This document shows positions 10,338 through 41,370 of a stretch of 64,000 nt of DNA, piece after piece. The DNA lies in assembly GCF_011045215.1 (NCBI RefSeq), contig NZ_CP049201.1; one strand, written 5' to 3'. Under the pieces are notes generated by a model. The model did not search any database. It was not told where the DNA came from and was given only the letters and a program-made list of their open reading frames with translations. Numbering within the stretch: the stretch's first letter is position 1; each line of letters starts with the position of its first letter. The DNA is from Escherichia coli (lineage in GTDB: Bacteria; Pseudomonadota; Gammaproteobacteria; Enterobacterales; Enterobacteriaceae). A program made the translations under genes and the position numbers.

Positions 10338-10365
10338 TGTTATGTCTATTGCTCATGGATGGGGA

Positions 10366-11082: not shown

Positions 11083-11124
11083 AGCGACCTCCCTTAACGT
11101 GGTGCTGTCGCTATTCTAAGTTCC

Positions 11125-12234
11125 TCACTCTGTTTCCGCTATCCATTCCGGGATTTTTGCCTCAAGCTCAAGCTGTGTGGTAAAGCCACTGTTATCAATG
11201 GTGTGCTCGGCTTTTGCAATAATCCAGTCCTGATTATCAATCTCGCTTTTAAATCCTGTTACCGTGCCATGCATTTCGGGGTAGAGTTCTGCGCGTCCGC
11301 GTGCCAGTGTGATGGAGAATGATGCGGCTCCGCGTTGTAGTTGTTGCCACTTTGCCGCCGCTGCGCGTCTTGCTGCCTGCTCGTTCTGATAAGTCTTGCG
11401 TAACACAAACACATTGCCTTCCGCGCCTTCCATATAATCACCTTCACGGCTGCTGCTTTTCTCTTTTTTCGGTTTTGGCGGTTTGCGGCGTTTCACGCTG
11501 ACTTTTTTCTTTTTCCCGTAATTAAGATCAAGCCAGTAAGCGCGTACCCCCGTATACGCCTCGCGGTCAGCAATGCGGAACTGATGGCGATCGCCGCTGC
11601 TGCGTGTGATGGCGAACGAGGGCAACGGCTGGCCCTGTGCGTTCACGCCACCGCCGGGCATGATGAATAACAGATTACCGCTTTTTACCGTGGTGATTGC
11701 GCCCAGCATTTCCGCCATGCGCGTAAGGAAGGACATGTCACTTTCTTCGGTCTGGTCGGCGTGGTCGATTTCGATATCCATCAGCATTTCGCTGATTTGC
11801 GGTTTCAGACCGTACCGATGAGCGATGGCGGATACCACACGCTCAACGGTCACATCATGCCAGGACATCTCACGTTTAACGTTAAATTCATCCCGAAAAT
11901 CTGCGCTTCTGGCTGAAACAGTCAGCCTGTCCGGCGGTCCTTCGTGAGCGATTTCATCAACAATGTAAGTGCCTTTTTCTGTCAGCGGTTCTCCTTTCCA
12001 GCCAATGAGAACCGTCAGGCGCGCGCCCCGTGGCGGTAGCTGCAACTGACCATCCGCATCATCCAGCGTGATGGTGAGCTGGTCCGCCTCAAATCCCCGG
12101 TTGTCGGTCAGTGACAGGCTCATCAGGCGCTCGGCCACGCCTGACAGCGTTTTACCCTCCGCGAGAATATCAAAATCCGGCATTTTCACGGGGTCTGTGC
12201 CCTGACTGAGCAATTGCATGGTGGTATCGGTCAT
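11125..12234 (-). CDS. D: tail protein D (gpD / late control D family)
   Basis: Listed ORF 11125..12366; GGAGGG precedes ATG at 12234 (MTDTTMQLL..); lysine-rich central segment; C-terminal NSGFTTQLELEAKIPEW as in gpD. Confidence 0.85.
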   Translation of the reverse strand: MTDTTMQLLSQGTDPVKMPDFDILAEGKTLSGVAERLMSLSLTDNRGFEADQLTITLDDADGQLQLPPRGARLTVLIGWKGEPLTEKGTYIVDEIAHEGPPDRLTVSARSADFRDEFNVKREMSWHDVTVERVVSAIAHRYGLKPQISEMLMDIEIDHADQTEESDMSFLTRMAEMLGAITTVKSGNLLFIMPGGGVNAQGQPLPSFAITRSSGDRHQFRIADREAYTGVRAYWLDLNYGKKKKVSVKRRKPPKPKKEKSSSREGDYMEGAEGNVFVLRKTYQNEQAARRAAAAKWQQLQRGAASFSITLARGRAELYPEMHGTVTGFKSEIDNQDWIIAKAEHTIDNSGFTTQLELEAKIPEWIAETE

Positions 12235-12391
12235 CTGTTCCCTCCCTGTGCGGCATGGTCGCATGTGCGTGCGGAGGGGGTTACTGCTTTTTGTTGTCGC
12301 CGTGGCGGGAGAACGGCGCAGGGGTGAGATTACGCGCGTGGTGGGTGATGATTGTTGCCGAATCATTTAACGGATACAAGGGGCTGAAGCT

Positions 12392-17974: not shown

Positions 17975-18004
17975 AAAACCGCTAATGGTCAGATTAGCGG
18001 TTTT
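17975..18004. terminator. bidirectional hairpin terminator between convergent U and invertase genes
   Basis: aaaaccgctaat-ggtcag-attagcggtttt: perfect inverted repeat flanked by an A-run and a T-run. Confidence 0.6.
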
Positions 18005-18611
18005 CATTTTCCTGAGTCTGCCTGGTTGTTTCTTCAGCCTGTATATCGCCTACAGGGTGATAACGATAAATCGTCGATATGCCGATGCCGTAAATGATCG
18101 CCAGTTGTTTCCTGTCATGACCGTTTTTGATCAGCCTTGCTATTTGCTCATGCTGTTCTTTTGTCAGCTTCGGGCGACGTCCGCCTGTGCGCCCCCGTGC
18201 GCGCGCTGCCGCCAGTCCGGCCAGTGTACGTTCAACAATTAATTCACGTTCCATTTCAGCCAGGGCACCCATCACGTGGAAGAAAAAACGCCCCATTGGA
18301 GAAGATGTATCTATGCTGTCGGTCAGACTGCGAAAATTAATCCCTCGCTCCCGTAGTTCTCCGACGAGAGAAATCAGATGTTTCATGCTTCGCCCAAGGC
18401 GATCCAGTTTCCAGACAACCAGCGTGTCACCTTTTTGAAGCCGCTTTAAAGCGCGTTTTAATCCCGGTCGGTCTGTCTTTGTCCCGCTTAATTTATCTTC
18501 AAATATTTGTTCACATCCTGCACAAACAAGAGCGTTTCGTTGCAGGTCTGTATTCTGGTCATTTGTTGATACCCTTACATAACCAATCAGCACACTGAAT
18601 CTCCCGTCCAA
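17994..18611 (-). CDS. serine recombinase, DNA invertase (Gin/Pin/Cin/Hin family)
   Basis: ..LIGYVRVSTNDQNTDLQRNAL.. catalytic-Ser N-terminus and C-terminal HTH; true start may be the GTG at 18593 (GGGAG upstream). Confidence 0.92.
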   Translation of the reverse strand: MDGRFSVLIGYVRVSTNDQNTDLQRNALVCAGCEQIFEDKLSGTKTDRPGLKRALKRLQKGDTLVVWKLDRLGRSMKHLISLVGELRERGINFRSLTDSIDTSSPMGRFFFHVMGALAEMERELIVERTLAGLAAARARGRTGGRRPKLTKEQHEQIARLIKNGHDRKQLAIIYGIGISTIYRYHPVGDIQAEETTRQTQENENR

Positions 18612-18647
18612 AAGCGCAAATCATGCCATGCAGGCCGGAAACGGCCA

Positions 18648-18673
18648 TTATCTAAAACCTCGGTTTACAGGAA
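18648..18673. repeat. gix/hix-like recombination site (left end of invertible segment)
   Basis: Reverse complement reads TTCCTGTAAACCGAGGTTTTAGATAA, close to the remembered Gin gix consensus; inverted copy at 21716..21741. Confidence 0.8.
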
Positions 18674-19618
18674 ACGGTAAATCAGGCTTCTGGCGCATTA
18701 CAGAAAAACCAGAACGGCGCAGATATTCCGGGAAAAGATACCTTCACCAAAAATATTGGGGCCTGCCGCGCATATAGCGCATGGCTGGATATTGGTGGCG
18801 ATAGTCAGGTCTGGACAACCGCGCAATTTATTTCGTGGCTGGAGAGTCAGGGAGCATTTAACCATCCTTACTGGATGTGCAAAGGCTCATGGGCTTATGC
18901 AAATAATAAGGTCATTACAGATACAGGTTGCGGAAATATTTGTCTTGCAGGTGCTGTGGTGGAAGTTATTGGCACTCGCGGCGCAATGACCATACGCGTT
19001 ACCACGCCGAGCACGTCCAGCGGTGGAGGAATTACTAACGCTCAATTCACTTATATTAATCATGGTGATGCTTACGCTCCTGGCTGGCGACGAGACTACA
19101 ACACGAAAAATCAACAACCTGCATTTGCTTTAGGGCAAACAGGAAGCACTGTCGGAAATGATAAAGCTGTTGGCTGGAACTGGAATAGCGGGGTCTATAA
19201 CGCAAATATTGGTGGCGCATCGACATTAATCCTCCACTTCAATATGAATACGGGGAGCTGCCCTGCTGCACAGTTCCGCGTGAATTACAGAAATGGCGGA
19301 ATCTTTTATCGTTCAGCGCGTGATGGTTATGGCTTTGAAGCTGACTGGTCAGAGTTTTACACCACAACCCGCAAACCCTCTGCGGGAGATGTTGGTGCAT
19401 ATACGCAGGCAGAATGTAACTCAAGGTTTATTACAGGTATTCGCCTTGGCGGTCTGTCATCTGTTCAGACATGGAATGGTCCCGGCTGGTCTGACAGGTC
19501 AGGTTATGTCGTTACGGGTTCAGTTAACGGAAACCGTGATGAATTAATTGATACAACTCAGGCAAGGCCAATTCAGTATTGCATTAATGGGACGTGGTAT
19601 AACGCGGGGAGTATTTAA
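18674..19618 (+). CDS. alternative (currently silent) tail-fibre C-terminal exon
   Basis: Frame is open from the crossover site ([22 protein letters not shown]..) with no start codon of its own; would fuse in frame to the H constant region after inversion; listed ORF 18875..19618 is its downstream part. Confidence 0.75.
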
Positions 19619-19620
19619 CG

Positions 19621-20154
19621 ATGATGCACTTAAAAAACATTACTGCTGGCAACCCTAAAACAAAAGAGCAATACCAGCTAACGAAACAATTTAACATCAA
19701 ATGGCTTTATTCAGAGGATGGAAAAAACTGGTATGAGGAACAAAAGAATTTCCAGCCAGACACTTTGAAAATGGTCTATGACCATAACGGCGTTATTATT
19801 TGTATTGAAAAGGATGTTTCAGCAATTAATCCGGAAGGCGCAAGCGTCGTTGAATTACCTGATATTACAGCAAATCGCCGTGCTGACATTTCGGGTAAAT
19901 GGATGTTCAAAGATGGCGTAGTGGTAAAGCGAACTTATACCGAGGAAGAGCAGAGGCAGCAGGCGGAAAATGAAAAGCAAAGCCTGCTACAGCTCGTCAG
20001 GGATAAAACCCAGCTATGGGACTCACAGCTACGGCTGGGCATCATTTCCGACGAGAATAAACAAAAATTAACCGAGTGGATGCTCTATGCGCAGAAAGTC
20101 GAATCCACAGACACCTCCAGCCTGCCAGTAACGTTTCCAGGACAACCAGAATGA
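19621..20154 (+). CDS. tail fibre assembly protein, alternative copy (G'/U'-type)
   Basis: 177 aa, [19 protein letters not shown]..; paralogue of the 20183..20710 product with a diverged C-terminus. Confidence 0.85.
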
Positions 20155-20157
20155 GAC

Positions 20158-20182
20158 AAGGCCCGCTATCGGGCCTTAATTT
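20158..20182. terminator. hairpin terminator between the two convergent tail-fibre assembly genes
   Basis: aaggcccgctatcgggcctt followed by aatttttatt. Confidence 0.5.
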
Positions 20183-20710
20183 TTATTCAGGCTTTTGTGG
20201 CCATTCAGGATTTGCCGTATCCACACGGCTGACCAGAACACTGTAGCGTTCCCATGACTCCAGTCGTGTGCGTTCCTCATCCGTCGCCATATTCAGCCTG
20301 ACAGCGCGTTCCAGTGGCTGAATAACGCTTTCAGCTTCGGAAAGTAACGCAGCCTTTTGTGATTCGGCCTGTTGTTGTTGCTCGTCTGCCGTATAAATCC
20401 GTTTAACTACAGCTCCATCCTTAAACATCCACTTTCCTGAACCATCAGCGCGGCGGTTGGCTGTAATATCGGGAACCTCAACGACGCTAAAACCTTCAGG
20501 GTTAAGCGTGGAGGCATCTTTAGTAATGGCGACAATAATATTATTTGCATCGTAAACAATCTTTATTGTGTCTGGCTGAAAGTTTTTCACTTCCTCATAC
20601 CAGTTTTTTCCGTCCTCAGAGTAAAGCCAGATAACTCCGTGTTTCTTTGTTAACTCATACTGTTCCAGTGTTTTAGCGTTACCCGCTTTTATGTTCTTTA
20701 AGTGCATCAT
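20183..20710 (-). CDS. G: tail fibre assembly protein (gpG-type), expressed orientation
   Basis: 175 aa immediately downstream of H on the same strand. Confidence 0.85.
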
Positions 20711-20711
20711 A

Positions 20712-22874
20712 TTAAACGCTCGCTACATTATACCAGGTGCCATTTATATACTTTTGAACGGGTCTGTAATAAACGCCCGCTATATTATCGGCAGAGTTGG
20801 AGCCTGTATCCTGAACATTAATACCAGACAATACATGACCTGACGGGCACTGGAAATTCCATGTTTGCCAGTTGTTCACTCCATAATATTGCTGTGAACC
20901 AAGTCGAACATCTTTCACATATCTGGAATCAAAATTGCCATAATTGCCGGGAATAACTTGCGCACCGCAAAGCCAGTTCCCGTTATTATCCATGTACGCC
21001 TGACCATCGGTGCCATTGGCTGTCCTTGAGTTATTAATCATGTAGATGCCAAATTGCTTATTTCCCAGACCGCCAATCATAAATTTTCGGTCGGCATGGT
21101 CCTGACGGAGCAAGGCCTGGGCGCTATCAGTGTTAACTATATTTTTCCCAAAGATAGCGTTGTTATCGCGCATCTGAATCCACATACCATTACCGCTGTT
21201 AATAGCAAAACGGTCTGAAAGTGTTTCTCCTGAAACATTAAGGCCACGCCCCATCGAAACAGCGCCAGTAGCGTTATTAATCCATAATGGCCTTAATCCG
21301 TTATAAGTCCCCATGTTGTCACCGGAGTTTGTCAACATGAAGTATGTATTTGAACCATCATTACGAATAAAGAATCCGTAACTACCATAAGCAATACGTA
21401 GGCCGTTTGCTGATTTTGATATGACTTCGCCATTTACAATGGCATTGACAAGAACATACAAAGCATCCCATTTAAGATTCATCAGGTCTTTTGTTGTGGT
21501 GCCTTGTTTGCTTCTCCATTTGAAATATTCATTGCCGTTGTCGCCTGTTTCAAACCACATGTATGAATCAGTATCGCTGTCGGCATCATTTTTAAATCCA
21601 ATCTTTGCCCAGTCAGTATTTCGAATCCAGGCAAGGATTGAGTCGTTTTCAAAAGTAAGTCCACCGGACAAGGTATCGCCTGTCTTTTGAACGGCGTTAC
21701 CAGCCTTGTTTACCGTTTCCTGTAAACCGAGGTATTCGATAACGGCGGCAACGGTCGATTTCGCAAGAATATCCCGCCCAACTTTTGTCAGGGTTGCCAA
21801 GCTGGCAACATCATTCCCCGTAAAATACGGAAACCTGTCTGCCGCAGTAGCAAGCCCGGCCAGCGCCGTCAGGGTGGCATCTTTCGGTTGCTTACCCGCA
21901 AGCGCGTTAGTCATGGTGGTCGCAAAATTCGGGTCGTTGCCCAACGCCGCAGCCAGCTCGTTCAGCGTATTCAGTGCGTCAGGCGACGAGTCCACGAGGG
22001 CAGCGATCGCAGCCATAACATAAGCCGTGCTTGCGATCTGAGTATTGTTAGTACCTTTTGGCGCAGTTGGTGTTGTTGGTGTTCCGGTCAGTGCCGGGCT
22101 GTTTAATGGGGCTTTCTTGTTCGTTTCATCCATTACCGCCTTAACCGCTTTTGGTGTCGCTGCCAGCGTTTCAGACGTGCTGTTGGTTGCACTACTAAGC
22201 TGGACAAGGCCTTTTCGCGTTGTAGTGGCGTCCTGAGCGGTATATTTTCCGTTAGCCAGGTCATACGCGGCCTTTACTGCTTTCGGCGTTGCAGCCTGCG
22301 TTTCAGAATCGTTGTTAGTGGCGCTACTGAGTTGAACAAAGCCTTTTGCGGTCAGCGAGGCATCCGGGTGACGTCGTGACTGTTCATGCTCTTTCAGTTT
22401 GTCATTCACGTAATCCACTGTGGCCATAACCATGGTGTTATCCACGGTAAGCGCCACGGTGGCAGTGCTGGATACGGTCAGAATGGTGCGAAATGTTTGT
22501 GCACGTCCGGACCCTTCGGCAACGGCTGGCTTGTAACTTTCGGCAGTATTGCCCACCGCGATCAAATCGCCGTGCTCATCAAACACACCAATTTCCCGGA
22601 TCCAGAATCCGCCCGTTTCAGGAGGAATAACCAGCTCTGCAATAATGCGGTTCTGATGTGTTGCGTCCAGGATGATGCGATTAACAGTATGTCGCCACAC
22701 CTCATGCACCAGACGGGTCTGCTTACTGTCTGGTGTGGGCAATGTACCGCCACCGTCGCCCACGGCCATATGAGTCAGGCGGACAGGCTTACCATCTGGC
22801 GCGGCTGCCTGAGCTAATTTTTTGGCACCCGTATCGGTGATAACGGTTTTAAATTTTCGTGTTGTGGTACTCAT
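20712..22874 (-). CDS. H: tail fibre protein H (constant N-terminus 22874..21742, variable C-terminus 21715..20712)
   Basis: 720 aa; N-terminus [34 protein letters not shown] resembles P2 gpH; a gix-like site lies in frame inside the gene. Confidence 0.9.
21716..21741. repeat. gix/hix-like recombination site (right end, inside H)
   Basis: TTCCTGTAAACCGAGGTATTCGATAA; inverted repeat of 18648..18673, differing only near the centre. Confidence 0.8.
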
Positions 22875-24650: not shown

Positions 24651-25228
24651 TGCGGGCCTCCTGTCGAATCGCTGCCGCCTTTCACGCCACCGTGTTTATG
24701 CGTATGCACGGTAATGCCGTTTGAGGTGAAGTTGCCGCCGCTGTGCGTGATATTGCCGCTCATCTTTCCTCCTTTTGTGACGTCAAGCGTCGCCGTTCTC
24801 AGAAGGTTTGTGCATTCCACGACGGGCGTATCCAGTTTCACGCTGACGGATGCCTGTAAAGTGGCCGTTTTCATGCCGCTGGCGCTCAGTGCGCCAGCGT
24901 CCGCGTCGTAGCGGAACATCGCGCCGTCCGGCGCGCTGATCACGATTTCTTTCAGGCTTTTGCCGGGTGCCGGATTGGCATCACTCCACAGACTGCCAAT
25001 TATCATGGCGGTTTCCGGGTTGCCGCCAATGCAGGCAATTACCACCTGTTCGCCTGGTGATGGCGGCAGCCACACATTGAAGGCTCCCGCGCGCGTGGTG
25101 TTCCAGCGCAACCAGCCTGTTTCCAGTTCGCCGCTGCGAACGCGCACGCGCCAGGACTTCTCATCAACTTCAGAGATGATCCCGGTGCGGATGATGTTGC
25201 TCAGCAGTCGCATGAGTTCTGCGCTCAC
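24647..25228 (-). CDS. V: baseplate spike/assembly protein V
   Basis: 193 aa; C-terminal ..HTHKHGGVKGGSDSTGGP typical of gpV. Confidence 0.85.
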   Translation of the reverse strand: MSAELMRLLSNIIRTGIISEVDEKSWRVRVRSGELETGWLRWNTTRAGAFNVWLPPSPGEQVVIACIGGNPETAMIIGSLWSDANPAPGKSLKEIVISAPDGAMFRYDADAGALSASGMKTATLQASVSVKLDTPVVECTNLLRTATLDVTKGGKMSGNITHSGGNFTSNGITVHTHKHGGVKGGSDSTGGPQ

Positions 25229-25869
25229 CGTACAGCCTCCGCAATCCGGCCCAGCACCGTGTTATAAATCAGGCGCTCATCTGCCTGGCTGATACCCAGC
25301 AGCTCACGTACCGGGTAATCGGTGAAAATGCCCGGCGCAACCTGATCGCGCTCACCGAACTGATGAACGCGGGCAATACGTGCGGCCACGCCGCTGTAAC
25401 CCACCGTCACACCGGAAGCATCTGCACGTGCTTTCAGGTAGCGGGCGGTGCGCAGTTTCACGAACATGGGGACGCGCTTTGTGCTGTCCTGGTTGATGCG
25501 CCGGGTGCGTATTTCCAGAAAACGGTCGATGTCATCCCGGTAAAACGTGCGGATGTTGTTTTTATCCTCATCCCACCCGGTAATGGTTCGCCCGTATTTC
25601 CCCGTGTCGTGATGCCAGTTTTTCAGCGTGCGTGCTTCGTTATTCCAGATAAAGCGAATGCGTTCCTGTATCCGGGTTACGCGGCGTCTGCGTGGTGTCC
25701 ACGCGGTCTCGTCCGGCGCTTTCTGTGACCGGATACGCGCCTGCTGGGCGCGGCGTAAATCCTGTGCCAGCTTTCTGGCGATGTTATTGATGGCCTGCTG
25801 ATTCAGGCTGTCGCGGATGGCCTCAAAGGTTTCATCCACGCGGGTGAATGCCTTATCCATCGCTTTCAC
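25225..25869 (-). CDS. S: virion morphogenesis / tail completion protein (gpS-like)
   Basis: 214 aa basic protein between R and V; longer than P2 gpS, so family assignment is tentative. Confidence 0.7.
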   Translation of the reverse strand: MKAMDKAFTRVDETFEAIRDSLNQQAINNIARKLAQDLRRAQQARIRSQKAPDETAWTPRRRRVTRIQERIRFIWNNEARTLKNWHHDTGKYGRTITGWDEDKNNIRTFYRDDIDRFLEIRTRRINQDSTKRVPMFVKLRTARYLKARADASGVTVGYSGVAARIARVHQFGERDQVAPGIFTDYPVRELLGISQADERLIYNTVLGRIAEAVR

Positions 25870-26320
25870 CCCACGTCACATCCTGGAATACATGCGACCA
25901 GTCGCCTTCGGAAGATGGCAGGCGGGGTTTTGGCTCCGGCAGGTGTTCTGCCTGCGGTGTGCCCTGACTGCTGCGCGTGATGCGAACGCGTTCCCGCAGG
26001 GGGAGCGTAAACAGGAGATCGGCGCTGTCATCGTCATTGATAACGGCGGAGAATTTGATGTCCTGATTACGCTCAGGGTTGAGCAACAACTGTGGCTGAT
26101 TTTCGGATAACCACGCCAGCAGCGGCAGCGTGAGGTCGTCCAGCTCCCCGGCGTAATCCATGACAAACATCACCATCTGATAGCGGTAAACAAACGATGG
26201 GGTTTCTCCTGTCGTTTCAATGTTGCCGCTCTCCACGAAAATGGTGAATTTTTCCGGGTTGGCCTGACACCATCGGCATGAACGGGTCATGGCTTCACGC
26301 AGGGAATCAGTTTTCAGCAT
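25853..26320 (-). CDS. R: tail completion protein R
   Basis: 155 aa; size and position match P2 gpR. Confidence 0.78.
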   Translation of the reverse strand: MLKTDSLREAMTRSCRWCQANPEKFTIFVESGNIETTGETPSFVYRYQMVMFVMDYAGELDDLTLPLLAWLSENQPQLLLNPERNQDIKFSAVINDDDSADLLFTLPLRERVRITRSSQGTPQAEHLPEPKPRLPSSEGDWSHVFQDVTWGESDG

Positions 26321-26597
26321 GGTTGTTGTCCTCGTTGTTCAGTCTTTGCAGCCTGCGCTGTTCCAGTAATTCAATGGCCCGTTTATCCGCGTTACAGGTT
26401 TCCAGTGCATCCAGAAGGCGGTCGCCCCATATACCGAGATTTCCCCATGTGGGAGTGTCAGGGAAGGGGGGAGGCGTTACCGGTATGGTCAGCGTCTGCG
26501 GTATAAGCCGGACTGACGGCGCTGGCCGTGGCGCGTTCTGCGTGCCTGCGCAACCTGTCAGTAAAACGAGCGTCAGGCAAAGCGTGGGCGCATTCAT
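26307..26597 (-). CDS. lysC: o-spanin (Rz1/LysC-like outer-membrane lipoprotein)
   Basis: Lipobox LTGCAG after a signal peptide, Pro-rich body; embedded in a different frame in the 3' part of the i-spanin gene; listed ORF 26307..26627, start assumed at MNAPTL. Confidence 0.7.
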   Translation of the reverse strand: MNAPTLCLTLVLLTGCAGTQNAPRPAPSVRLIPQTLTIPVTPPPFPDTPTWGNLGIWGDRLLDALETCNADKRAIELLEQRRLQRLNNEDNNHAEN

Positions 26598-26865
26598 CTT
26601 TTGCAATATCGTTGCGTAGCTGTTCACGTCTTACCTCTCCGTCCTGATTGCGTTGCTGATTTTCCACGCGGAGTTGCGCCAGCACCTGCTGCATATCCTG
26701 TACCCCGGCGCTGATGATATTCAGGGTGTCGGCGGTACTTTTCAGGGTGCTGGCCTGCGCTTCGTTTCTGGCGTTCTCCCGGCCCAGCGACCACGACAGA
26801 CGCATGGATGTTCCCCATCCGGCAATCAGAAGGAAAGCGACGCCAAGCGTGGGCCAGAGCTTCAT
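26458..26865 (-). CDS. lysB: i-spanin (Rz/LysB-like)
   Basis: MKLWPTLGVAFLLIAGWG N-terminal TM then coiled-coil; listed ORF extends further upstream but the sensible start is MKLW. Confidence 0.72.
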   Translation of the reverse strand: MKLWPTLGVAFLLIAGWGTSMRLSWSLGRENARNEAQASTLKSTADTLNIISAGVQDMQQVLAQLRVENQQRNQDGEVRREQLRNDIAKDECAHALPDARFTDRLRRHAERATASAVSPAYTADADHTGNASPLP

Positions 26866-27254
26866 GCCGGATAGGCTCCGTGTGGTAACTGAAAATGCGG
26901 TCCGTCTTTCAGGGTCTTCCAGTCGCCGCCCCATTCCACCGGAATATTCAGTTCCCGGCTGGCCTGTCTGAATGCTGCTGCGATTTTTTCGTACAGCGGC
27001 CATTCCCATGACACCTGGCTGCCGATATAAGCCACAACATCCACGGCATGCCCCGTAAGGTGGCGGCTGTTCATGGTCTGGCTCTTACCTGTGGCCACAA
27101 GTTGCTTCTGGCGGTAACGGCTGCGCAACCCTTCGGTGATACCAAAATCCACTTCCGAGATTTCCAGTGCCCGTCGGGTCACTTTCACCAGATCAGGATT
27201 TACGCCCTGCAAATTCTTTTCGCTCCGGCTGCTGAATTTAAATGTGTTGCTCAT
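26862..27254 (-). CDS. endolysin, peptidase M15-type (L-Ala-D-Glu endopeptidase-like)
   Basis: 130 aa; ..HLTGHAVDV.. metal-binding context typical of small M15 phage endolysins; sits in the lysis cassette. Confidence 0.75.
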   Translation of the reverse strand: MSNTFKFSSRSEKNLQGVNPDLVKVTRRALEISEVDFGITEGLRSRYRQKQLVATGKSQTMNSRHLTGHAVDVVAYIGSQVSWEWPLYEKIAAAFRQASRELNIPVEWGGDWKTLKDGPHFQLPHGAYPA

Positions 27255-27574
27255 TCGTCCTTCTCCTTCACCCTGCGATTAAAGGCCGCAATAACCTTGT
27301 CGCGTGCTTTCTCTGCCCCCATAAAACCGATTGATGCGCCGATAAACGTCACGGCATCTTCAGGAAAACCGAAGAAGCGCAACGACCCGGCCACGGCCAT
27401 GGCAAGAACGCCGCACGCCAGCGATCCCGTTACGGTCTGAACCAGTGTTCGTCCGTCATAAAGACTCATCAGCGCGGAAATGCTGACCGCCGCGCCTACT
27501 GCATACACCGTTGGCAGGTGGTCAAAGAGCCATGCAATAACCTGCTCTGTGATCCCTGTTTGAATGGTGCTCAC
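27251..27574 (-). CDS. putative holin
   Basis: About 107 aa with hydrophobic segments and a charged C-terminus, between X and the endolysin; start (GTG at 27574) is uncertain. Confidence 0.5.
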   Translation of the reverse strand: MSTIQTGITEQVIAWLFDHLPTVYAVGAAVSISALMSLYDGRTLVQTVTGSLACGVLAMAVAGSLRFFGFPEDAVTFIGASIGFMGAEKARDKVIAAFNRRVKEKDE

Positions 27575-27576
27575 TG

Positions 27577-27777
27577 CTACTCCCCCCACAACTGAATCAT
27601 TTCTCGTTTCTTCTTCTCCGGCTCCGGCATCTCCACTTCCTGCCCGGCGTCCAGAAATACCTGCTGACAGAGTCCGGGGTTGGCATCCAGCACCTTTTCG
27701 GTGACGCCCTGCGTCGTGCCGTAGTACCGGAAACAGAGCGAATCCACGGTGTCGCCTTCCAGTGCCTTCACTTTCAT
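27577..27777 (-). CDS. X: tail protein X (LysM-like)
   Basis: MKVKALEGDTVDSLCFRYYGTTQGVTEKVLDANPGL resembles P2 gpX. Confidence 0.8.
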   Translation of the reverse strand: MKVKALEGDTVDSLCFRYYGTTQGVTEKVLDANPGLCQQVFLDAGQEVEMPEPEKKKREMIQLWGE

Positions 27778-28280
27778 CAGCACAACTCCGCAAAGATTCG
27801 CGGGCGGCACAGAATGTCAGAGATGGCCCAGCTCACATCGCGCCACAAATCCGATGTCTGTATATCCAGTGCGTCCGCCCGGCGGTCGCCCTTGTCCGTT
27901 GTGTCCGCATCGCGGTAACGCTCCAGAATCAGGGCGCGTGTGGCGGTATAAACAGCATTGCGCCAGTGCCAGAGATTGACGCTTTCTCCGTTAATTACGG
28001 GTGCCGGAACATCGGCCAGCGTCTGATGGCCAGCTGCCTGCTGTTCCTGCTGCCATGCTTCCAGCTCGCGGGTAACGTGTGCCACAGCCCCGGTGGCGGT
28101 ATGCAGCAGGCGGGAGGTGGTCACACGGCCCGGCAGTCGTATCGCCAGACGCAGCTCACGCAGCACAATATCCGGCCAGAATGCACCCGCTGAAATACGG
28201 GTATCACCATCATCGGTATCGGTGATGTCGTCCTCTGCGGGGCCGGGGTTGGTTCTGGCAACCATACTCATGGGGTTCAC
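27777..28280 (-). CDS. L: head completion/stabilisation protein L
   Basis: 167 aa; position and size as P2 gpL. Confidence 0.82.
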   Translation of the reverse strand: MNPMSMVARTNPGPAEDDITDTDDGDTRISAGAFWPDIVLRELRLAIRLPGRVTTSRLLHTATGAVAHVTRELEAWQQEQQAAGHQTLADVPAPVINGESVNLWHWRNAVYTATRALILERYRDADTTDKGDRRADALDIQTSDLWRDVSWAISDILCRPRIFAELC

Positions 28281-28372
28281 TCCTGAAAAAATCGGGCGGT
28301 GGGTGCGCGGTGTAAACGGTCACGGAGTCAAACCGGAACACCGCGCACGCCGCCCGCTGACGGGGTCAGTCG

Positions 28373-29173
28373 TTAACCGCGCTTCGCCTTCTGCGTCGCG
28401 GTGGTTTTACGTGTTGCAGGCTTCCGCGTTGTCTTTTTACTTTTGCTGCTTTCGTCCTGCGCCTGTGGTGTGCTGGCGTCTTCTGGTGCGGCTGCGGAAT
28501 CGGCTTTTTTCAGGGCGCGGGAAAGGGTTGCAATCTCGCGTTTCACACCTGCGTTCGGGTTCAGGTGCATTGCTTCGCGCAGCAGCTTCAGTGACAGGGC
28601 CATGCTGTCTGCATCGGTCAGGCCACGGCGGGCAAAGGCGCACGCCTTGCATAATTTGGCGCGCACTTCGTCCGGCATGTCCTGGTCGGTGACAATCTCC
28701 CGGAGGGTGTCCAGTGGTTCGATAAAGGCGGACAAATCCGCGTCGGCATCCGTCCCGGCTTGCGTCAGTACCGGATTGCAGATTTCTTCGGTCAGCACTG
28801 TGGCAGCAGTACGGCCAAAGTTATCCGGCATGATGAGGTTGTGACGGACCACATACGCACCAATACGCAGCGCCAGCGGAAGATCGCCGCAGTCAATCGC
28901 CCACACCATCAGCGTGGCAATCACTTCATCCTGCTGCCCGCCGTCAGCCTCCAGCGTTCCCTCAATCCAGCCGGAAAAATCCGGCAACAACTCTTTTTTG
29001 ATGGCGGCTTTCGCGCTTCTGGCCTGTACGCCCTTAAGCCGGGCCTGTGCCAGACGCAGACGATACAGCACCTCTTCATGCGCGGTACGCGCGGCGTGGT
29101 CCACGCCTTCATTCGCCCGGCCTGCGCGCTGTGCCATCACGTTCTGCCAGTGTTGCTGTGCAGGAGTAATCAT
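28373..29173 (-). CDS. M: terminase endonuclease (small) subunit M
   Basis: 266 aa with basic Lys/Thr-rich C-terminus; P2 gpM-like. Confidence 0.85.
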   Translation of the reverse strand: MITPAQQHWQNVMAQRAGRANEGVDHAARTAHEEVLYRLRLAQARLKGVQARSAKAAIKKELLPDFSGWIEGTLEADGGQQDEVIATLMVWAIDCGDLPLALRIGAYVVRHNLIMPDNFGRTAATVLTEEICNPVLTQAGTDADADLSAFIEPLDTLREIVTDQDMPDEVRAKLCKACAFARRGLTDADSMALSLKLLREAMHLNPNAGVKREIATLSRALKKADSAAAPEDASTPQAQDESSKSKKTTRKPATRKTTATQKAKRG

Positions 29174-29218
29174 TTTTTCTCTCCGTTACAGGCGGGCATG
29201 ATGCCCGCCGTGAGTTGA

Positions 29219-30271
29219 TTAGCTGTCGGCGAACTTCAGGCCAGTGACCATCGCGCACTTGCCATAGTCTTCAACGACATAAGCGTCATTGATGGACTGG
29301 TAGGTGGCGATGCGGTTGTATTCCGGTTCGTCTTTCATCAGACGACGCATTGAACCTTTCTGCCAGTAAATTGACAGGTTGTTGAATGAGGTGATCAGCA
29401 TCGTTGAATCCGGGAAGAACGGCGCAAGGAACACGCCCAGCCCGCCAATGGTGCGCGATGACAGAATGAGCTGCCCGGCGAGTAATTCCGCATTAGGATT
29501 CTGGCCGCTGATGCTGTTCAGCACGGGCAGACGCAGCGAGTTAAACAGGTTGCGCCCCATAATCACCACGAGGTCGTCAGCTTCCTTGTGCCATTCATCC
29601 AGCAGGGATGAACGCGCGTCCTGTACCAGTGCATCAGCGTTCGCATACTTACCCGCGTGTGCCACGGTGTTGTCCATGTTGCGGGAGGTCAGCGTCACGT
29701 CATTCATAACGCGTTCGCTGGCGTCGGTTCTGATGTGCTCCAGCCAGCCCACGTTAACGTCCTGAAGCAGCTTGTTGGTGCTGAAGTTGGACTCATCCGC
29801 GTGAGACGTGCCGTTGAAACCGATCATGATGCGATCAAGTGCCACCTGTCGGGCAATCTGTGCGCTGATGCGGGACTGAAAATCAGGGTGTGCCGCCCAG
29901 GCATCAAGCTGCGGATATGAAATAAACGTGTCGTAGTTCACCTGTTCGCACTGGTATTTGCGGTTTTTCAGATCAACCACGTTATTCGGGTTACGGCGTT
30001 TTGTGCCGTCATAACTGGTATTCGTGCGCGCAATCGGCCCGGTGGTATCCAGGAGGATTTTTTCGCCTTTCTGGTCGGTCACGCCGATCACGTTAATTCT
30101 TTTTGTAAATTCGGTGCTTTCCTTTGAGGCGTTTTCAAAACGCTGCTGTACCGAGGGTTCCACGGTAAATCGCGATACCAGTGCGGAAACCGGGATATTG
30201 TTAAGCGACGCCTGCTGCGCCATATAGCAACCCAGCTTGTTGCGGGTAATATCTGACATCACCAGATTCAT
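29219..30271 (-). CDS. N: major capsid protein N
   Basis: 350 aa; ..FTVEPSVQQ.. and ..VVIMGRNLF.. resemble P2 gpN. Confidence 0.9.
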   Translation of the reverse strand: MNLVMSDITRNKLGCYMAQQASLNNIPVSALVSRFTVEPSVQQRFENASKESTEFTKRINVIGVTDQKGEKILLDTTGPIARTNTSYDGTKRRNPNNVVDLKNRKYQCEQVNYDTFISYPQLDAWAAHPDFQSRISAQIARQVALDRIMIGFNGTSHADESNFSTNKLLQDVNVGWLEHIRTDASERVMNDVTLTSRNMDNTVAHAGKYANADALVQDARSSLLDEWHKEADDLVVIMGRNLFNSLRLPVLNSISGQNPNAELLAGQLILSSRTIGGLGVFLAPFFPDSTMLITSFNNLSIYWQKGSMRRLMKDEPEYNRIATYQSINDAYVVEDYGKCAMVTGLKFADS

Positions 30272-30294: not shown

Positions 30295-31131
30295 TCAGAA
30301 GTCAGCCAGCTGGTCGGAGGCTGCGCCCGTTGCGGTGAACCGGTTCTGCGGATCGCCGTCCTGCGTGCGCAGTTTTTCCTTCAGTGCTGTCAGCTCTGTG
30401 GTCAGTGACGTAATTTTCTGGCGGTCCTGCTGATGGCGGGTTTCCAGCACATTAAAACGGTCGATAATGTCGGCCTGTGACGTTGCGACGCCTTCCACCG
30501 CTTCCTGAATACGGGAAAAACTGGCGTCATCCGCTTTGCGGCCACGGCCAATAATCCCCATTACGCGGTTAAACCACTGGGTGCCTTCTTCCTGGCGTTG
30601 TTCTGCCATTTCGATGATTTCAGACTCGATGGCTTCGGAGATAAGCGGCGCTTCACCCTGGACACTGTTGAACGTCATTACCGCCTGACGTTGCTGTGCC
30701 GTGAATTTCAGGCGCTCAGTGCCCAGGCTTGCCGGGGTGTCGGTCATCGCCAGCCCGACCAGATAGGCGCGCCCGTTAACGGAGAACTGCGGGTGCAGTT
30801 CGATACTGGAATAGATTTTCTTGCCGTCAGCGACAAGCTGCTTCATGCGCTCGGTCGGTTCGATTTCTGCATACAGCGCAGTACGTCCGGCCAGCGGGCC
30901 TTCCGTAATATCTTCCGTACTCAGCGCGGTGACATCGCCCATTGCGCAAAAGTCGCTTGATGGATATGGCGAGAGAATGTGCTCAACGTTCACGCGGGCA
31001 GCGTAAACATCCGGGTTGAAGTTCTCGGCGGCTTCACGCAGATGCACCGGACTGATTTCACGGCCATCAACAGTTGATCCGGAGACAGCCACGCGAAACT
31101 TTTTGCGGGATGTCTTTTTTTCATTAGCCAT
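30295..31131 (-). CDS. O: capsid scaffolding protein O
   Basis: Listed ORF 30295..31164; likely start MANEKKTSRKKFRVA; P2 gpO-like. Confidence 0.85.
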   Translation of the reverse strand: MANEKKTSRKKFRVAVSGSTVDGREISPVHLREAAENFNPDVYAARVNVEHILSPYPSSDFCAMGDVTALSTEDITEGPLAGRTALYAEIEPTERMKQLVADGKKIYSSIELHPQFSVNGRAYLVGLAMTDTPASLGTERLKFTAQQRQAVMTFNSVQGEAPLISEAIESEIIEMAEQRQEEGTQWFNRVMGIIGRGRKADDASFSRIQEAVEGVATSQADIIDRFNVLETRHQQDRQKITSLTTELTALKEKLRTQDGDPQNRFTATGAASDQLADF

Positions 31132-31285
31132 AGTTTTTGCCCCTCTGACTGGTTCTTCAGTCATGATGGCAAAGCGTAACAGGCTGATACAAAGGGCTTT
31201 TGTTGTAAGAAAACGGCCAGAACAGGGGGTTAAGGAGAACGGTTTCGCGCGCGGGTAATCTTCCTGTAATTACTCAGGGGGAGCA

Positions 31286-33037
31286 ATGATTCAGGACGCT
31301 TTTGTGCGCCAGCGTGCGCGACAACTTTACTGGCAGGGTTATCCGCCCGCAGAAATATCACGTCTGATGGGAATAAACCCGAACACGATTTATGCGTGGA
31401 AAAAACGCGACCAGTGGGATGAAACGCCACCCGTGCAGCGTGTCACGCAGTCCATCGATGCGCGTCTCATCCAGCTTACTGAAAAACAGAATAAAACAGG
31501 CGGTGACTTCAAGGAAATAGACCTGCTGACCCGGCAGCTTAAAAAGCTGCATGATGGCCAGCCGGATGTGACGGCCACAGGAAAGAAAGGCCGGGCGAAA
31601 AAACTCAAAAATCATTTCACGCCGGAACAGATTGCCGCACTGCGGGAAAAAATCATCAGCAGGCTGGAGTGGCATCAGCGGGGCTGGTTTGACTCCCTGA
31701 CCCTTTGCAGGGAAGCCGGGATACGTAACAGGATGATCCTGAAATCCCGACAGATTGGGGCGACCTGGTATTTTGCACAGGAAGCACTGCTGATGGCGCT
31801 GCGTGACGATGTGGCGCAACCTTACCAGCGTAACCAGATTTTTTTGTCTGCGTCGCGTCGTCAGGCGTTCCAGTTTAAAAGCATTATTCAGAAGGCCGCG
31901 GCTGAAGTTGATGTGGAGCTGAAAGGGGGCGATAAAATCATCCTCTCCAACGGCGCAGAGCTGCATTTTCTCGGCACTTCTGCTGCGTCGGCACAGTCCT
32001 ATACGGGCAATTTTTATTTTGATGAATTTTTCTGGGTCAGTCGCTTTGCTGAACTGCGCAAGGTGGCTGGCGCTATGGCAACCCTCAGCGGACTGCGGCG
32101 CACCTACTTCTCCACGCCATCCACCGAAACGCACGAGGCATACGCCTACTGGAACGGCGACCGCTGGAACGAGAAAAAGGCCTCGCATAAACGCCAGCGT
32201 TTTTCTGTGGACTGGAAAACGCTGCATAACGGGCTTATCTGCCCTGACCGGACGTGGCGGCAAATTGTCACGCTGGAAGATGTGGTTAATCACGGCTGGA
32301 AACACACCGATATTGACGAAATCCGTGATGAAAACACCGAAGACGAGTTCCTCAATCTCTATATGTGTGAGTTTGTTCGCGAAGGGGAATCGGCATTTAA
32401 CCTGAATATCCTGATTGGCTGCGGTGTTGACGGATACGACGACTGGAAAGACTGGAAACCTTTTGCTCCCCGCCCGATGGGGAATCGTCCGGTATGGATT
32501 GGGTATGACGCAAACGGCAGCAGTGGCAACGGCGACAGCGGCGCTGTGTCCGTGGTGGTTCCTCCGGCTGTTCCTGGTGGCCGTTTTCGAACGGTGGAGA
32601 CGCGACGCGTTCAGGGGCTGGAGTTTGAAGAACAGGCCAGAGTCATTGAAGAGTTCACGTATCGCTACAACGTGGAACACATCGGCATTGATGTGACGGG
32701 CGGGAACGGGGAGGCTGTTTATCAGATAGTGAAACGGTTTTTCCCTGCTGCTATTCCGTACACCTTCACGCTGTCATCAAAACGGTCGCTGGTACTGAAA
32801 ATGCTGCAAATAATGCGTGCCGGGCGGTGGGAATACGATCGCGCCGAACGCGAGCTGGTCGCGGCCTTTAACGCCGTGCGTAAGGTGAAAACACCGGGCG
32901 GCTTTATCACTTACGAAACGGACCGCGCGAGGGGGATCAGCCACGGCGACCTTGCGTGGGCAACCATGCTTGCTGTCATTAACGAACCGATTGGCGGCGA
33001 AGGAGAAAACGAGCGTTTCACGGTTATGGAGTTCTGA
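31286..33037 (+). CDS. P: terminase ATPase (large) subunit P
   Basis: 583 aa; divergent from O as in P2. Confidence 0.92.
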   Translation: MIQDAFVRQRARQLYWQGYPPAEISRLMGINPNTIYAWKKRDQWDETPPVQRVTQSIDARLIQLTEKQNKTGGDFKEIDLLTRQLKKLHDGQPDVTATGKKGRAKKLKNHFTPEQIAALREKIISRLEWHQRGWFDSLTLCREAGIRNRMILKSRQIGATWYFAQEALLMALRDDVAQPYQRNQIFLSASRRQAFQFKSIIQKAAAEVDVELKGGDKIILSNGAELHFLGTSAASAQSYTGNFYFDEFFWVSRFAELRKVAGAMATLSGLRRTYFSTPSTETHEAYAYWNGDRWNEKKASHKRQRFSVDWKTLHNGLICPDRTWRQIVTLEDVVNHGWKHTDIDEIRDENTEDEFLNLYMCEFVREGESAFNLNILIGCGVDGYDDWKDWKPFAPRPMGNRPVWIGYDANGSSGNGDSGAVSVVVPPAVPGGRFRTVETRRVQGLEFEEQARVIEEFTYRYNVEHIGIDVTGGNGEAVYQIVKRFFPAAIPYTFTLSSKRSLVLKMLQIMRAGRWEYDRAERELVAAFNAVRKVKTPGGFITYETDRARGISHGDLAWATMLAVINEPIGGEGENERFTVMEF

Positions 33038-34731: not shown

Positions 34732-35229
34732 ATGAACCCAATAACACTACAAATCATCAGCAATGCTATTGTTCTGCTTGGCGTTTTGGTTGCCATTGGA
34801 ACCATTATCTACAATGTGCGTACCGCAAAAAAAACTCAAACGGCCAACTTTCTTTTTGAGAGTCGGCAAGATATGCAATATATAGAGTCATTGCATACCC
34901 TGAAACAAGTGCATCGTTCAGGCAAATCATTTCGTTCTTATGTTTTTCCTTGTGATGGTTGTACAATAACAGATGAGGAAATGGCCGAGCGTCGAAAATT
35001 TCAATATATTTTAAATTTTTACGAGCGAGTTGCTGTAAGTATTCGTGAAGGTATTTATGATGAAAAAATGATAAAAAGAACATCTTACACAACAGTTGTA
35101 GAGACATATGATATTGCCGAGCCATTAATTAAAGCAATCAGAGAAAGCATTAATTCGGATACTACATATCAAGAATTCGAATGGTTAGTAAGAAGATGGA
35201 AAGCTAATCCTTTACGGAAAAACAAATAA
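34732..35229 (+). CDS. hypothetical protein with single N-terminal TM helix (accessory cassette gene 1)
   Basis: 165 aa; N-terminal hydrophobic helix then a charged soluble domain; no family recognised. Confidence 0.65.
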   Translation: MNPITLQIISNAIVLLGVLVAIGTIIYNVRTAKKTQTANFLFESRQDMQYIESLHTLKQVHRSGKSFRSYVFPCDGCTITDEEMAERRKFQYILNFYERVAVSIREGIYDEKMIKRTSYTTVVETYDIAEPLIKAIRESINSDTTYQEFEWLVRRWKANPLRKNK

Positions 35230-35268
35230 TGTTTTACCCTTTAATTTACAAGTAACACAGGGGGAAGT

Positions 35269-36111
35269 GTGACACAGAATCCGTTTTCATTTTATGACTT
35301 TTTGGGCTATCTAATTCCAGGTGGGTTATTCCTGTTTATCCTTTTTTTGTTTTCTATTGAAATTAACCCTGTTTATATAGAAGGTATTCTTAACCACATC
35401 CTGAAATATAAAGAAATAATAAGTGTATTTATATATGTGGTATTAATTGTTCTATCATATATTTCAGGTCACTTCATATCTATTCTATCATCCTGTTTAA
35501 TTGAAAAATACATGAACAGTAAACTTGGGTATCCTTCAATTTATCTGTTTTCTAAAAGAAGCTCCCTGAAAATAAAACGACATAATACTAAGTTCAGTAT
35601 AGTTCATTTTATCCGTGGAGTTTTTTTACTTCCTGTATCAGCTTTTGATAAAGCAGAACATCATAAAACCACTCTGCATTCTATACTTATTAAAGTCTTT
35701 TGGCCGCAAATACGAGATGGTTATATAAATGTTTTTTCTGTATCTACGCTATATCGACGTAAGGGCTTGAGGGGCGATCTTTTTCGCCTTGCTTATCATT
35801 ATGTGTATGAACATTCTAAAAATCATCAGGTGAAAATGCAAAACTATGTTGCTTTGTATGGTTTTTGTAGAAACATTACATTTGTTTTTCTCGCTTCAGT
35901 CTGGTTGCTTATATGCCTGTTCCCTCTATCCTTTTTAATAGATATAAATATCAGGTTGTTACCTTTTTGTTTTCTTCTCTTGTTTTGTATTGCTGCATCC
36001 CGAGTATTTTATTATGGTTTTGTTAAGTATTATCGCCGCTATTCTCTTGAGGTTTTAATGGCATTTGCGGTACTTCAGCACGATAAAAAAACTTCGGCAA
36101 TTCCATCATGA
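35269..36111 (+). CDS. hypothetical polytopic membrane protein (accessory cassette gene 2)
   Basis: 280 aa, GTG start preceded by AGGGGGAAG; about 5-6 hydrophobic segments; visibly AT-rich; no family recognised. Confidence 0.65.
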   Translation: MTQNPFSFYDFLGYLIPGGLFLFILFLFSIEINPVYIEGILNHILKYKEIISVFIYVVLIVLSYISGHFISILSSCLIEKYMNSKLGYPSIYLFSKRSSLKIKRHNTKFSIVHFIRGVFLLPVSAFDKAEHHKTTLHSILIKVFWPQIRDGYINVFSVSTLYRRKGLRGDLFRLAYHYVYEHSKNHQVKMQNYVALYGFCRNITFVFLASVWLLICLFPLSFLIDINIRLLPFCFLLLFCIAASRVFYYGFVKYYRRYSLEVLMAFAVLQHDKKTSAIPS

Positions 36112-37508: not shown

Positions 37509-37615
37509 CGGGATTCTGAAATCCCGTTTTTGCCTGTTTTATGCGCGCTTCATATATCGCGGCGCGTTTTTTGCTCATTTACGGGATTTGTGAATCCCGT
37601 TTCTGTCTGTTTTTT
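37509..37615. repeat. two copies of a ~33-bp direct repeat, each with an 18-bp hairpin palindrome
   Basis: cgggattctgaaatcccg (37509..37526) and cgggatttgtgaatcccg (37582..37599), each followed by a T-rich tail; the second lies within the last codons of A. Confidence 0.5.
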
Positions 37616-40745: not shown

Positions 40746-41227
40746 TGCGGCAATCCTCTTGTTACAGATGTGCGAAGGCCTCCCGCCGCAAGGTGCAGGA
40801 AAGGCCCGGAACAGGAATTAATGGAGTTTGTTTTGCTGCTGGATGAGCTGTTGAAGCTCGTGCAGATCATCCGCCAGATAGCTGAAAACAGAGGCGGAAT
40901 AAATGTTTGATAGTGCGTGGCTGCGCTCATGCCGCATATTGATGTGCATGATTTGCGCGACGCGTGATGCGCGGGAAAGTCTGCGGTTGATTTCAGTCTG
41001 GATGTGACGACGCTCCGCGATAGCGCGGTGCTGTTTGCGGTCTGCCATGGTGTGGCCTCTTTGCTCGGTGATAGAAATAACTCACCATCCAGAGTTGAGA
41101 ATCTCGGGGTGGCGAGACGTACAGGGTTCTCAACACCGGAGAGCAAAGAATCCGGCCCGACCGAAGTCGGCCCCGTACGCCCCGCCATAATTCTGACGCG
41201 AAAAAGACGTGGCAATACAGTACGCAC

Positions 41228-41248
41228 AAAAAAACCGCTTGCGCGGTT
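41228..41248 (-). terminator. rho-independent terminator (minus strand)
   Basis: On the minus strand aaccgcgcaagcggtt followed by TTTTTTT. Confidence 0.5.
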
Positions 41249-41370
41249 ATGCGCTTTGCTCTGTATCGGGTTGAGAATCCCGGCACCCGTTTTATGAGGT
41301 GCAGCGGAAATGTAACCTGACCGATTGAGGCATGGCAAGCGGTTTTTTTGTGTGTGCATGTTCTGGTTTC

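Follow-up and report, generated by a model that had tools for sequence, protein, structure and literature searches.

In bacteriophage P2 the lysis genes Y-K-lysA-lysB-lysC form part of the late gene run, with tail gene X on one side and R on the other, and encode among others a holin of the PF04550 family (gpY), gpK, which we take to be lambda-R-like, and a two-component spanin whose genes overlap. Endolysins of another kind are found in other phage types than the P2-like temperate phages: LysECD7 (PDB 8Q2G) and EndoT5 (PDB 2MXZ), the latter described as having Ca2+-regulated loops, are single-domain M15 L-alanyl-D-glutamate peptidases of ~130 aa. In Serratia marcescens, the chromosomal chiWXYZ genes are used for holin/endopeptidase-dependent secretion of chitinase; their peptidase ChiX (PDB 5OPZ) is an L-alanyl-D-glutamate endopeptidase by biochemical assay, with zinc ligands H68/D75/H123 and a D120A variant that is inactive. 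Escherichia phage P88 (Xuanwuvirus P88, Peduoviridae; NC_026014), in which gp30-gp32 stand between the same neighbours X and R, is mitomycin-inducible and plaque-forming, its latent period being 20 min and its burst size ~65 (PMC5285337).

The window analysed here, a 64,000-nt stretch of an Escherichia coli genome (contig NZ_CP049201.1 of assembly GCF_011045215.1), contains a lysis cassette of four genes on the minus strand, extending over 26307-27574 from o-spanin stop to holin start (Table 1). Very probably it is functional and serves for lysis in a P88-like prophage that appears to be intact, acting by the canonical three-step route of lysis in Gram-negative hosts. An earlier note, made from the letters alone, had placed a four-gene module at exactly these coordinates, and the order that it gave, of holin, M15 endolysin, i-spanin and out-of-frame o-spanin, is backed by profile searches and by homology to solved structures, the family profile scores of the four proteins lying far above chance expectation. 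The genes are tightly packed: the holin and endolysin genes share an ATGA stop/start overlap at 27251-27254, as do the endolysin and i-spanin genes at 26862-26865, and the start of gene R overlaps the final 14 nt of the o-spanin gene. As in P2, the neighbours of the cassette are the tail genes X and R; the stop codon of X is separated from the holin start by a gap of 2 nt, so that the cassette occupies P2's own cassette site.

Table 1. Features of the lysis cassette and its immediate neighbours, in positions of the window
Feature	Coordinates	Strand	Description
Holin	27251..27574	-	107 aa, GTG start; lambda-S (class I) family; PF05106, phrog_126
Endolysin	26862..27254	-	130 aa; M15 (LAS) zinc metallopeptidase; PF13539, phrog_465
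i-spanin	26458..26865	-	135 aa; phrog_214 Rz-like spanin
o-spanin lipoprotein, LysC/Rz1 type	26307..26627	-	PF23793 LysC, phrog_3001
Tail gene X, upstream neighbour	27577..27777	-	PF05489 73 bits; 48% identity to P2 X; RefSeq CDS
Tail completion gene R, downstream neighbour	25853..26320	-	PF06891 137 bits; 40% identity to P2 R
Exchangeable endolysin cartridge	26845..27273		blastn breakpoints vs Citrobacter phage Shae_phiSM

The surrounding prophage is apparently an intact P88-like element (Xuanwuvirus, P2-like) inserted between flk and pdxB. When it is compared with P88, 94% of 25 kb is matched at 97.0% identity, rising to 98.45% over 6 kb of the late region and to 99.1% across all 1268 bp of the cassette. 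The endolysin protein is 100% identical to P88 gp31 and the holin, i-spanin and o-spanin each differ by one amino acid; the o-spanin is unannotated in the P88 record, and the cassette is otherwise essentially without difference from that of this inducible, plaque-forming phage. Long open reading frames are open at the positions expected for gpD, gpA, portal, terminase, capsid, sheath and tape measure, their identities being taken from the annotated counterpart in E. coli SCU-152. Many P2-like prophages are cryptic, and in the nearly identical prophage of SCU-152 the replication endonuclease is frameshifted and the homologue of gene D shortened, which would favour a reading of the cassette as the unused remnant of a defective prophage. 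We consider such a reading very unlikely, however, as the counterparts of these damaged genes are intact in the window (413 aa at 11125-12366; 932 aa at 37575-40373), none of the four lysis ORFs is interrupted, and P88, an active phage, has the very same endolysin protein. At a coverage of at least 80%, the cassette was found in 1007 of 5426 complete E. coli genomes, and RefSeq annotation of E. coli genomes already includes all four of its genes; it is an already known, ordinary module of a P2-like prophage that is common in E. coli and has been sequenced before. As a separate observation on the prophage, a low-GC cargo segment at 34732-36111 differs from SCU-152, its closest E. coli relative.

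That the 130-aa protein is an M15-type endolysin, as had been proposed from its letters, was borne out by profile search, which matched it to peptidoglycan-hydrolase families: assignment by HMM gave PF13539 (Peptidase_M15_4) at 46 bits against a cut-off of 25, and phrog_465 'endolysin' at 5e-77, and no NCBIfam model matched either this protein or the o-spanin. Among solved structures it matches 23ri (2.1e-48), ChiX (5opz, 2.5e-48), LysECD7 (8q2g, 2.7e-46) and the T5 endolysin (2mxz, 8.8e-23), with residues 5-130 aligning with ChiX, LysECD7 and chain 23ri at 62-63% identity. The active site is conserved, all five of residues R44, H65, D72, D117 and H120 being kept: the zinc ligands of the His-x6-Asp...His motif, H65/D72/H120, correspond to H68/D75/H123 in ChiX and H62/D69/H117 in LysECD7; D117 corresponds to the catalytic acid, D120 in ChiX and D114 in LysECD7; and R44 corresponds to the substrate-binding arginine, R47 in ChiX and R41 in LysECD7. 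Homologues are present in 1249 phage records, in which they are usually annotated as endolysin and often stand beside a holin. From its ~62% identical relatives, among which ChiX was assayed, we infer that the enzyme is an L-alanyl-D-glutamate endopeptidase.

The title of PF13539, 'D-alanyl-D-alanine carboxypeptidase', and the one zinc site common to LAS enzymes raise the question of whether the protein might instead be a VanY/VanX-like D-Ala-D-Ala carboxypeptidase or dipeptidase, serving in wall remodelling or resistance rather than as an endolysin. This is extremely unlikely, given that its closest solved relatives over the full length are ChiX, with demonstrated L-Ala-D-Glu endopeptidase activity, and the phage endolysin LysECD7, followed by the T5 endolysin; that ChiX is only 16% identical to VanX; that the gene is placed between a holin and spanins; and that phage records usually give its homologues as endolysins.

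The closeness of ChiX invites a further reading, in which the cassette would serve non-lytic, holin/endopeptidase-dependent protein secretion of the chiWXYZ kind (a 'type 10 secretion system') rather than phage lysis. At the Serratia locus the four families of the window cassette recur with their order unchanged (PF05106, PF13539, a DUF2570 i-spanin and PF23793 LysC), with spanin genes that overlap too; ChiX is 62% identical to the window endolysin, and ChiW and the window holin both have a single start. Against this, the window cassette is flanked by X, at a distance of 2 nt, and by R, which it overlaps; the prophage around it is complete and P2-like, and no cargo gene is close by, whereas the chi operon stands among chitinase genes (LPMO, chiR, GH18) without phage genes. 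The two holins are only 25% identical, the i-spanins have no similarity detectable by BLASTP, and cell lysis and plaque formation are on record for P88, whose cassette is the same. A secretory role in place of lysis is thus improbable in the extreme.

The boundaries of the holin, earlier regarded as uncertain, are settled by a GTG start at 27574 with the Shine-Dalgarno sequence GGGGGAG upstream, by annotation of the same 324-nt coding sequence in P88 and by RefSeq, and by an alignment with ChiW (25% identity) in which the N-termini pair residue 1 to residue 1. The protein scores 71.1 bits against PF05106 (cut-off 23.8), spanning profile positions 5-99 of 99, and 1.7e-35 against phrog_126 holin/anti-holin; against TIGR01594 holin_lambda, an NCBIfam equivalog, it reaches 54.5 bits, 0.5 bit below the cut-off of 55.05. 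Its identity to a manually entered lambda S sequence is only 23%. Judged by hydropathy with a threshold of 1.4, hydrophobic stretches lie at ~21-38, ~43-65 and ~73-87, and the C-terminal tail after them is charged; the first two segments are clear and the third, at ~1.3, falls just below the threshold. A dual-start (holin/antiholin) motif as in lambda was not found in the gene, which has a single GTG, the next Met being residue 36 inside the first hydrophobic segment. A second, upstream start for an antiholin was considered and rejected: the in-frame GTG 5 codons upstream adds no charged residue and is used by no record. Some enterobacterial phages lyse by a pinholin that makes small holes and a membrane-tethered SAR endolysin, but such a system is scarcely conceivable here in place of a large-hole holin and a soluble endolysin, since the endolysin has neither signal peptide nor SAR domain nor any hydrophobic N-terminal segment (highest 15-aa hydropathy 0.74), its close relative ChiX is also without a signal peptide, and by profile the holin falls in the family typified by lambda holin S.

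The i-spanin matches phrog_214 'Rz-like spanin' at 7.3e-42. Its score against DUF2570, the name under which RefSeq annotates it, is sub-threshold at 20.1 bits; it is not a LysB equivalog (TIGR03495, 16.3 bits against a cut-off of 92.75) and gives no BLASTP match to P2 LysB. By hydropathy it has an N-terminal transmembrane anchor, with hydrophobic residues 4-20 after Lys2, and its periplasmic domain carries Cys92. The o-spanin scores 51.5 bits against PF23793 LysC (cut-off 27) and 3e-25 against phrog_3001, and is 32% identical to P2 LysC over o-spanin residues 10-86 (E 5e-5). It has a lipobox L-T-G-C (...LLTG|CA...) with Cys26, counted from GTG 26627, and Ala at +2; the mature part is Pro-rich, with Cys78. 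Three start candidates are available, namely GTG 26627, ATG 26597 and CTG 26576, the last being that of the RefSeq lysC CDS. GTG 26627, which has the Shine-Dalgarno sequence GGAGAGG 6 nt before it, is favoured over the other two, and the lysC start codon is likely to be mis-set in RefSeq records.

The o-spanin had been described as embedded in the i-spanin gene in another frame. The second part of that description stands, the gene being in the +1 frame of the i-spanin; the first does not, since after an overlap of 170 nt from the GTG it runs 151 nt past the i-spanin stop, ending at 26307 where the i-spanin ends at 26458, and so is not wholly inside it. Under the definition of overlapped spanin architecture given in PMC6139136, the pair is overlapped, like P2 lysB/lysC, and not embedded like lambda Rz/Rz1.

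Lysis would then proceed as follows. The cassette would be transcribed together with late structural genes, in a run to which L, X, R and S also belong, presumably under late-operon control. Firstly, the lambda-S-family holin would accumulate in the inner membrane until, at a fixed moment, it opened what are probably large holes. Secondly, the soluble 130-aa zinc peptidase, having no export signal, would leave the cytoplasm through these holes and, with the predicted specificity, cut the stem peptide between L-Ala and D-Glu, detaching the cross-links from the glycan strands. Thirdly, the spanin complex of inner-membrane i-spanin and outer-membrane lipoprotein o-spanin, freed from the wall meshwork, would disrupt the outer membrane. 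A scan of 25000-29500 for regulatory signals gave no promoter-like sites, and four terminator-like sites against 4.9 expected, none of which matches the attenuator annotated within P2 lysC; Rfam families were absent in and near the cassette, as were P2-type TGT-N12-ACA dyads and their N10-14 variants from the O/P intergenic region at 31100-31320.

The suggestion in the earlier note that the lysis cassette has undergone mosaic exchange is supported on three sides, by its non-homology with P2, by a single-gene swap of the endolysin in a related phage, and by the closeness of the endolysin to those of two other phages (74.6% and 77% identity, below) beside structural neighbours that are far less like those of P2. 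With regard to P2, there is no DNA similarity over 6 kb, and the flanking structural proteins are only 25-48% identical. The window proteins have no BLASTP similarity to P2 Y, K or lysA products, so that the endolysin is, as had been noted, not of the gpK type; the holins, PF05106 in the window and PF04550 in P2, belong to different families, a Pfam search of P2 gpK and LysA gave no match, and the cassette has no lysA-like gene. Judged from these protein comparisons, holin and endolysin are non-homologous replacements relative to P2 and lysA is absent, while the o-spanin retains homology to the LysC family. In composition the cassette, with a GC of 0.54-0.59 equal to that of its flanks, bears no mark of recent import.

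The second line of support comes from within the genus. Citrobacter phage Shae_phiSM (Xuanwuvirus) matches the window at 97.8-97.9% DNA identity in the holin, the spanins and the genes to either side, and a 429-bp cartridge (Table 1) is replaced in it by a 640-bp GH108 segment, as delimited by blastn. The cartridge is little more than the complete endolysin gene, with ~7 codons from the end of the holin gene and ~7 from the beginning of the i-spanin gene. In place of the M15 peptidase, Shae_phiSM has a 181-aa GH108 muramidase with PG_binding_3. Of the 5426 complete E. coli genomes, 66 contain a match to this GH108 segment, which in 38 reaches at least 95% identity. With flanks ~98% identical, the pair provides a clean natural case of single-gene endolysin replacement, M15 peptidase against GH108 muramidase. 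Beyond this and its correct annotation, the cassette has little wider significance, being a standard holin-endolysin-spanin module of a prophage met with very commonly in E. coli.

Relatives of the endolysin are spread among other phages, with 77% identity to that of Salmonella phage 9NA, 74.6% to that of Escherichia phage KarinMuster_Bas82 (58.5-kb genome), and ~38% in tblastn matches in T5-like phages. Like LysECD7 (62% identity and the same five active-site residues) and EndoT5, it is a single-domain enzyme, and it has the zinc ligands, catalytic Asp and substrate Arg in common with ChiX. By analogy with Serratia, the P88-type cassette could be a phage-borne sister of chiWXYZ that provides for sub-lytic protein release in its carriers, with the alternation of M15 and GH108 separately under selection; we hold this to be highly unlikely. 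Low-level expression of the cassette in the ~1/5 of complete E. coli genomes that carry it might release protein without full lysis, and selection, exerted perhaps by host wall chemistry or by inhibitors, might maintain the alternation of M15 and GH108 at this site. In its four families, the window cassette is a phage counterpart of chiWXYZ, which, unlike it, is chromosomal and used for secretion, and the comparison of the two may aid the study of how lysis cassettes become secretion systems.

The lysis cassette first read from sequence is confirmed, its proposed span (26307-27574) running exactly from holin start to o-spanin stop, and the accompanying interpretation is supported with two corrections: the spanin genes are overlapped, and the holin boundaries, left uncertain in the earlier note, are now settled as tabulated. 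It is an already known feature that is annotated routinely, and Escherichia phage P88 (Xuanwuvirus, Peduoviridae), like roughly a dozen related phage records, shares it at 99.1% DNA identity. In P88 it is annotated as a holin, a 'Peptidase M15' endolysin and a DUF2570 protein; the o-spanin is unannotated in the P88 record. The cassette was found at a coverage of at least 80% in 1007 of 5426 complete E. coli genomes, in which RefSeq carries names for all four genes. The endolysin protein is exactly that of P88, the holin, i-spanin and o-spanin each differ by one residue, and 94% of 25 kb of prophage aligned to P88 at 97.0%. P88 forms plaques, so a cassette with this sequence does function. Profile search identified its neighbours as P2-type L, X, R and S.

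Genes of the lysis cassette and the adjoining tail gene R
Feature	Position	Strand	Length	Remarks
Holin	27251-27574	-	107 aa	GTG start 2 nt past stop of tail gene X; GGGGGAG immediately upstream
Endolysin	26862-27254	-	130 aa	Start and holin stop share ATGA
i-spanin	26458-26865	-	135 aa	Start and endolysin stop share ATGA
o-spanin	26307-26627	-	<=106 aa	+1 frame relative to i-spanin gene
Tail gene R	25853-26320	-		Start overlapped by final 14 nt of o-spanin gene

The assignment of the endolysin as an M15-type peptidase is borne out by several lines of evidence: it matches PF13539 Peptidase_M15_4 (46 bits against a cut-off of 25) and phrog_465 (endolysin, 5e-77), and the outcome that would have refuted the note, a protein that profile search does not place among peptidoglycan hydrolases, did not arise. 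Among solved structures, full-length matches were obtained to 23ri (2.1e-48), Serratia marcescens ChiX (5opz, 2.5e-48) and LysECD7 (8q2g, 2.7e-46), all at 62-63% identity, as well as to the T5 endolysin (2mxz, 8.8e-23). ChiX is by experiment a zinc L-alanyl-D-glutamyl endopeptidase, in which His68, Asp75 and His123 bind zinc, Asp120 is essential and Arg47 aids substrate binding (PMC5778951); the equivalent set in LysECD7 is H62, D69, H117, D114 and R41 (PMC11267749). On alignment, the window endolysin keeps all five positions (H65, D72, H120, D117 and R44). No hydrophobic N-terminus was found on it (highest 15-aa hydropathy 0.74), which points to a soluble cytoplasmic enzyme that would depend on a hole-forming holin. 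The holin itself matches PF05106, the lambda S family (71.1 bits against 23.8), and phrog_126 (1.7e-35), falling 0.5 bit below the NCBIfam lambda-holin equivalog cut-off. Its hydrophobic stretches (~21-38, 43-65 and 73-87, followed by a charged tail) would fit the three-helix lambda S pattern; the gene has one start only and lacks the dual-start motif of lambda.

An i-spanin gene with an out-of-frame o-spanin lipoprotein gene was correctly recognised, but its description as embedded was not correct: the o-spanin gene extends 151 nt past the i-spanin stop, which makes the pair 'overlapped' under the definition in PMC6139136, like P2 lysB/lysC. The i-spanin, sub-threshold against DUF2570 (20.1 bits), matches phrog_214 'Rz-like spanin' (7e-42); it is anchored once, at the N-terminus (residues 4-20), and has Cys92 on the periplasmic side. 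The o-spanin matches PF23793 LysC (51.5 bits against 27) and phrog_3001 (3e-25); it has a lipobox (LTG|C) followed by Ala at +2, a mature part rich in proline, and Cys78. RefSeq starts this gene (lysC) at a CTG codon, 26576, just 8 residues ahead of the lipid-modified Cys. Either GTG 26627 or ATG 26597 is a more plausible start; GTG 26627 appears more likely than the CTG because GGAGAGG (Shine-Dalgarno) sits 6 nt 5' of it, it yields a 25-residue signal peptide including a basic residue (lysine), and this lysine is where BLASTP starts to align the protein with P2 LysC.

The prophage is inserted between flk and pdxB, and long ORFs are open where gpD, gpA, portal, terminase, capsid, sheath and tape measure are expected. 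Homologues of gene D (11125-12366, minus strand, 413 aa) and the replication endonuclease (37575-40373, minus strand, 932 aa) are intact, whereas in its closest E. coli relative, the SCU-152 prophage, they are shortened and frameshifted, respectively, so that the window copy appears to be the functional one. The divergent interval that separates the scaffold (O-like) and large terminase genes (31100-31320) contains no P2-type TGT-N12-ACA activator dyad. Between the portal and parM-like genes lies a low-GC (0.29-0.35) two-gene insert (34732-36111, plus strand), missing from the SCU-152 prophage, which is 99.6% identical elsewhere and bears a frameshifted DUF3800 gene at this site. ORF1 (165 aa) is DUF4760 (1e-34); ORF2 (280 aa) seems hydrophobic and may be a multi-pass membrane protein, its sole PADLOC match being weak (Csx27, 6e-6). 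Variable anti-phage cargo often occurs at about this position in P2-like phages, making the pair candidate defence genes. In the early region, Rfam matches above gathering score comprise C4 antisense RNA (41105-41192, minus strand, 78.5 bits) and, adjoining it, the Hfq-binding sRNA isrK (41228-41302, minus strand, 63.1 bits). A recombinase/DNA invertase gene (17994-18611, minus strand) adjoins two opposed tail-fibre and fibre-assembly gene sets; the region (17994-22874), annotated alike in P88 and SCU-152, resembles an invertible host-range segment of the Gin/Cin type. For the left end (~9300-11100, approximate coordinates transferred by alignment), the annotation of the SCU-152 counterpart lists a DNA methyltransferase and its accompanying Com-family regulator, a Hok/Gef toxin gene and a gene for an ogr/Delta-like zinc-finger activator.

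Mosaic exchange of the cassette, as originally proposed, holds at three levels: Firstly, the proteins L, X, R, S and V encoded around the cassette are 25-48% identical to their P2 homologues, yet neither the holin nor the endolysin shows similarity to its P2 counterpart (gpY, PF04550, and gpK, respectively), and a lysA-like gene is absent; LysC, 32% identical to the o-spanin, is the sole recognisable homologue among the cassette proteins. Secondly, Citrobacter phage Shae_phiSM, of the same genus, matches both flanks at 97.8-97.9% identity but has 26845-27273 replaced by 640 bp that code for a GH108 muramidase bearing a PG_binding_3 domain, with joints ~7 codons inside the holin 3' and i-spanin 5' ends. 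This GH108 segment was matched in 66 E. coli genomes, in 38 of them with an identity of at least 95%, with the same kinds of neighbours on either side among the matches listed. Thirdly, the endolysin family spans phage types, occurring in 1249 phage records that include T5-like phages, genomes of 160-180 kb and smaller ones, with copies 74.6% identical in Escherichia phage KarinMuster_Bas82 (58.5-kb genome) and 77% in Salmonella phage 9NA. GC content gave no sign of recent import.

A ChiX-like protein also led to the Serratia chi secretion locus, which shares all four families with the cassette in identical order: a PF05106 holin (ChiW), ChiX, a DUF2570 i-spanin and an overlapped LysC-family o-spanin. 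ChiW is only 25% identical to the window holin, and similarity between the i-spanins is not significant. As the chi operon lies among chitinase genes, without phage genes, whereas the cassette sits between tail genes, we take the cassette to be a lysis module and chiWXYZ to be a related operon that was turned to another use.
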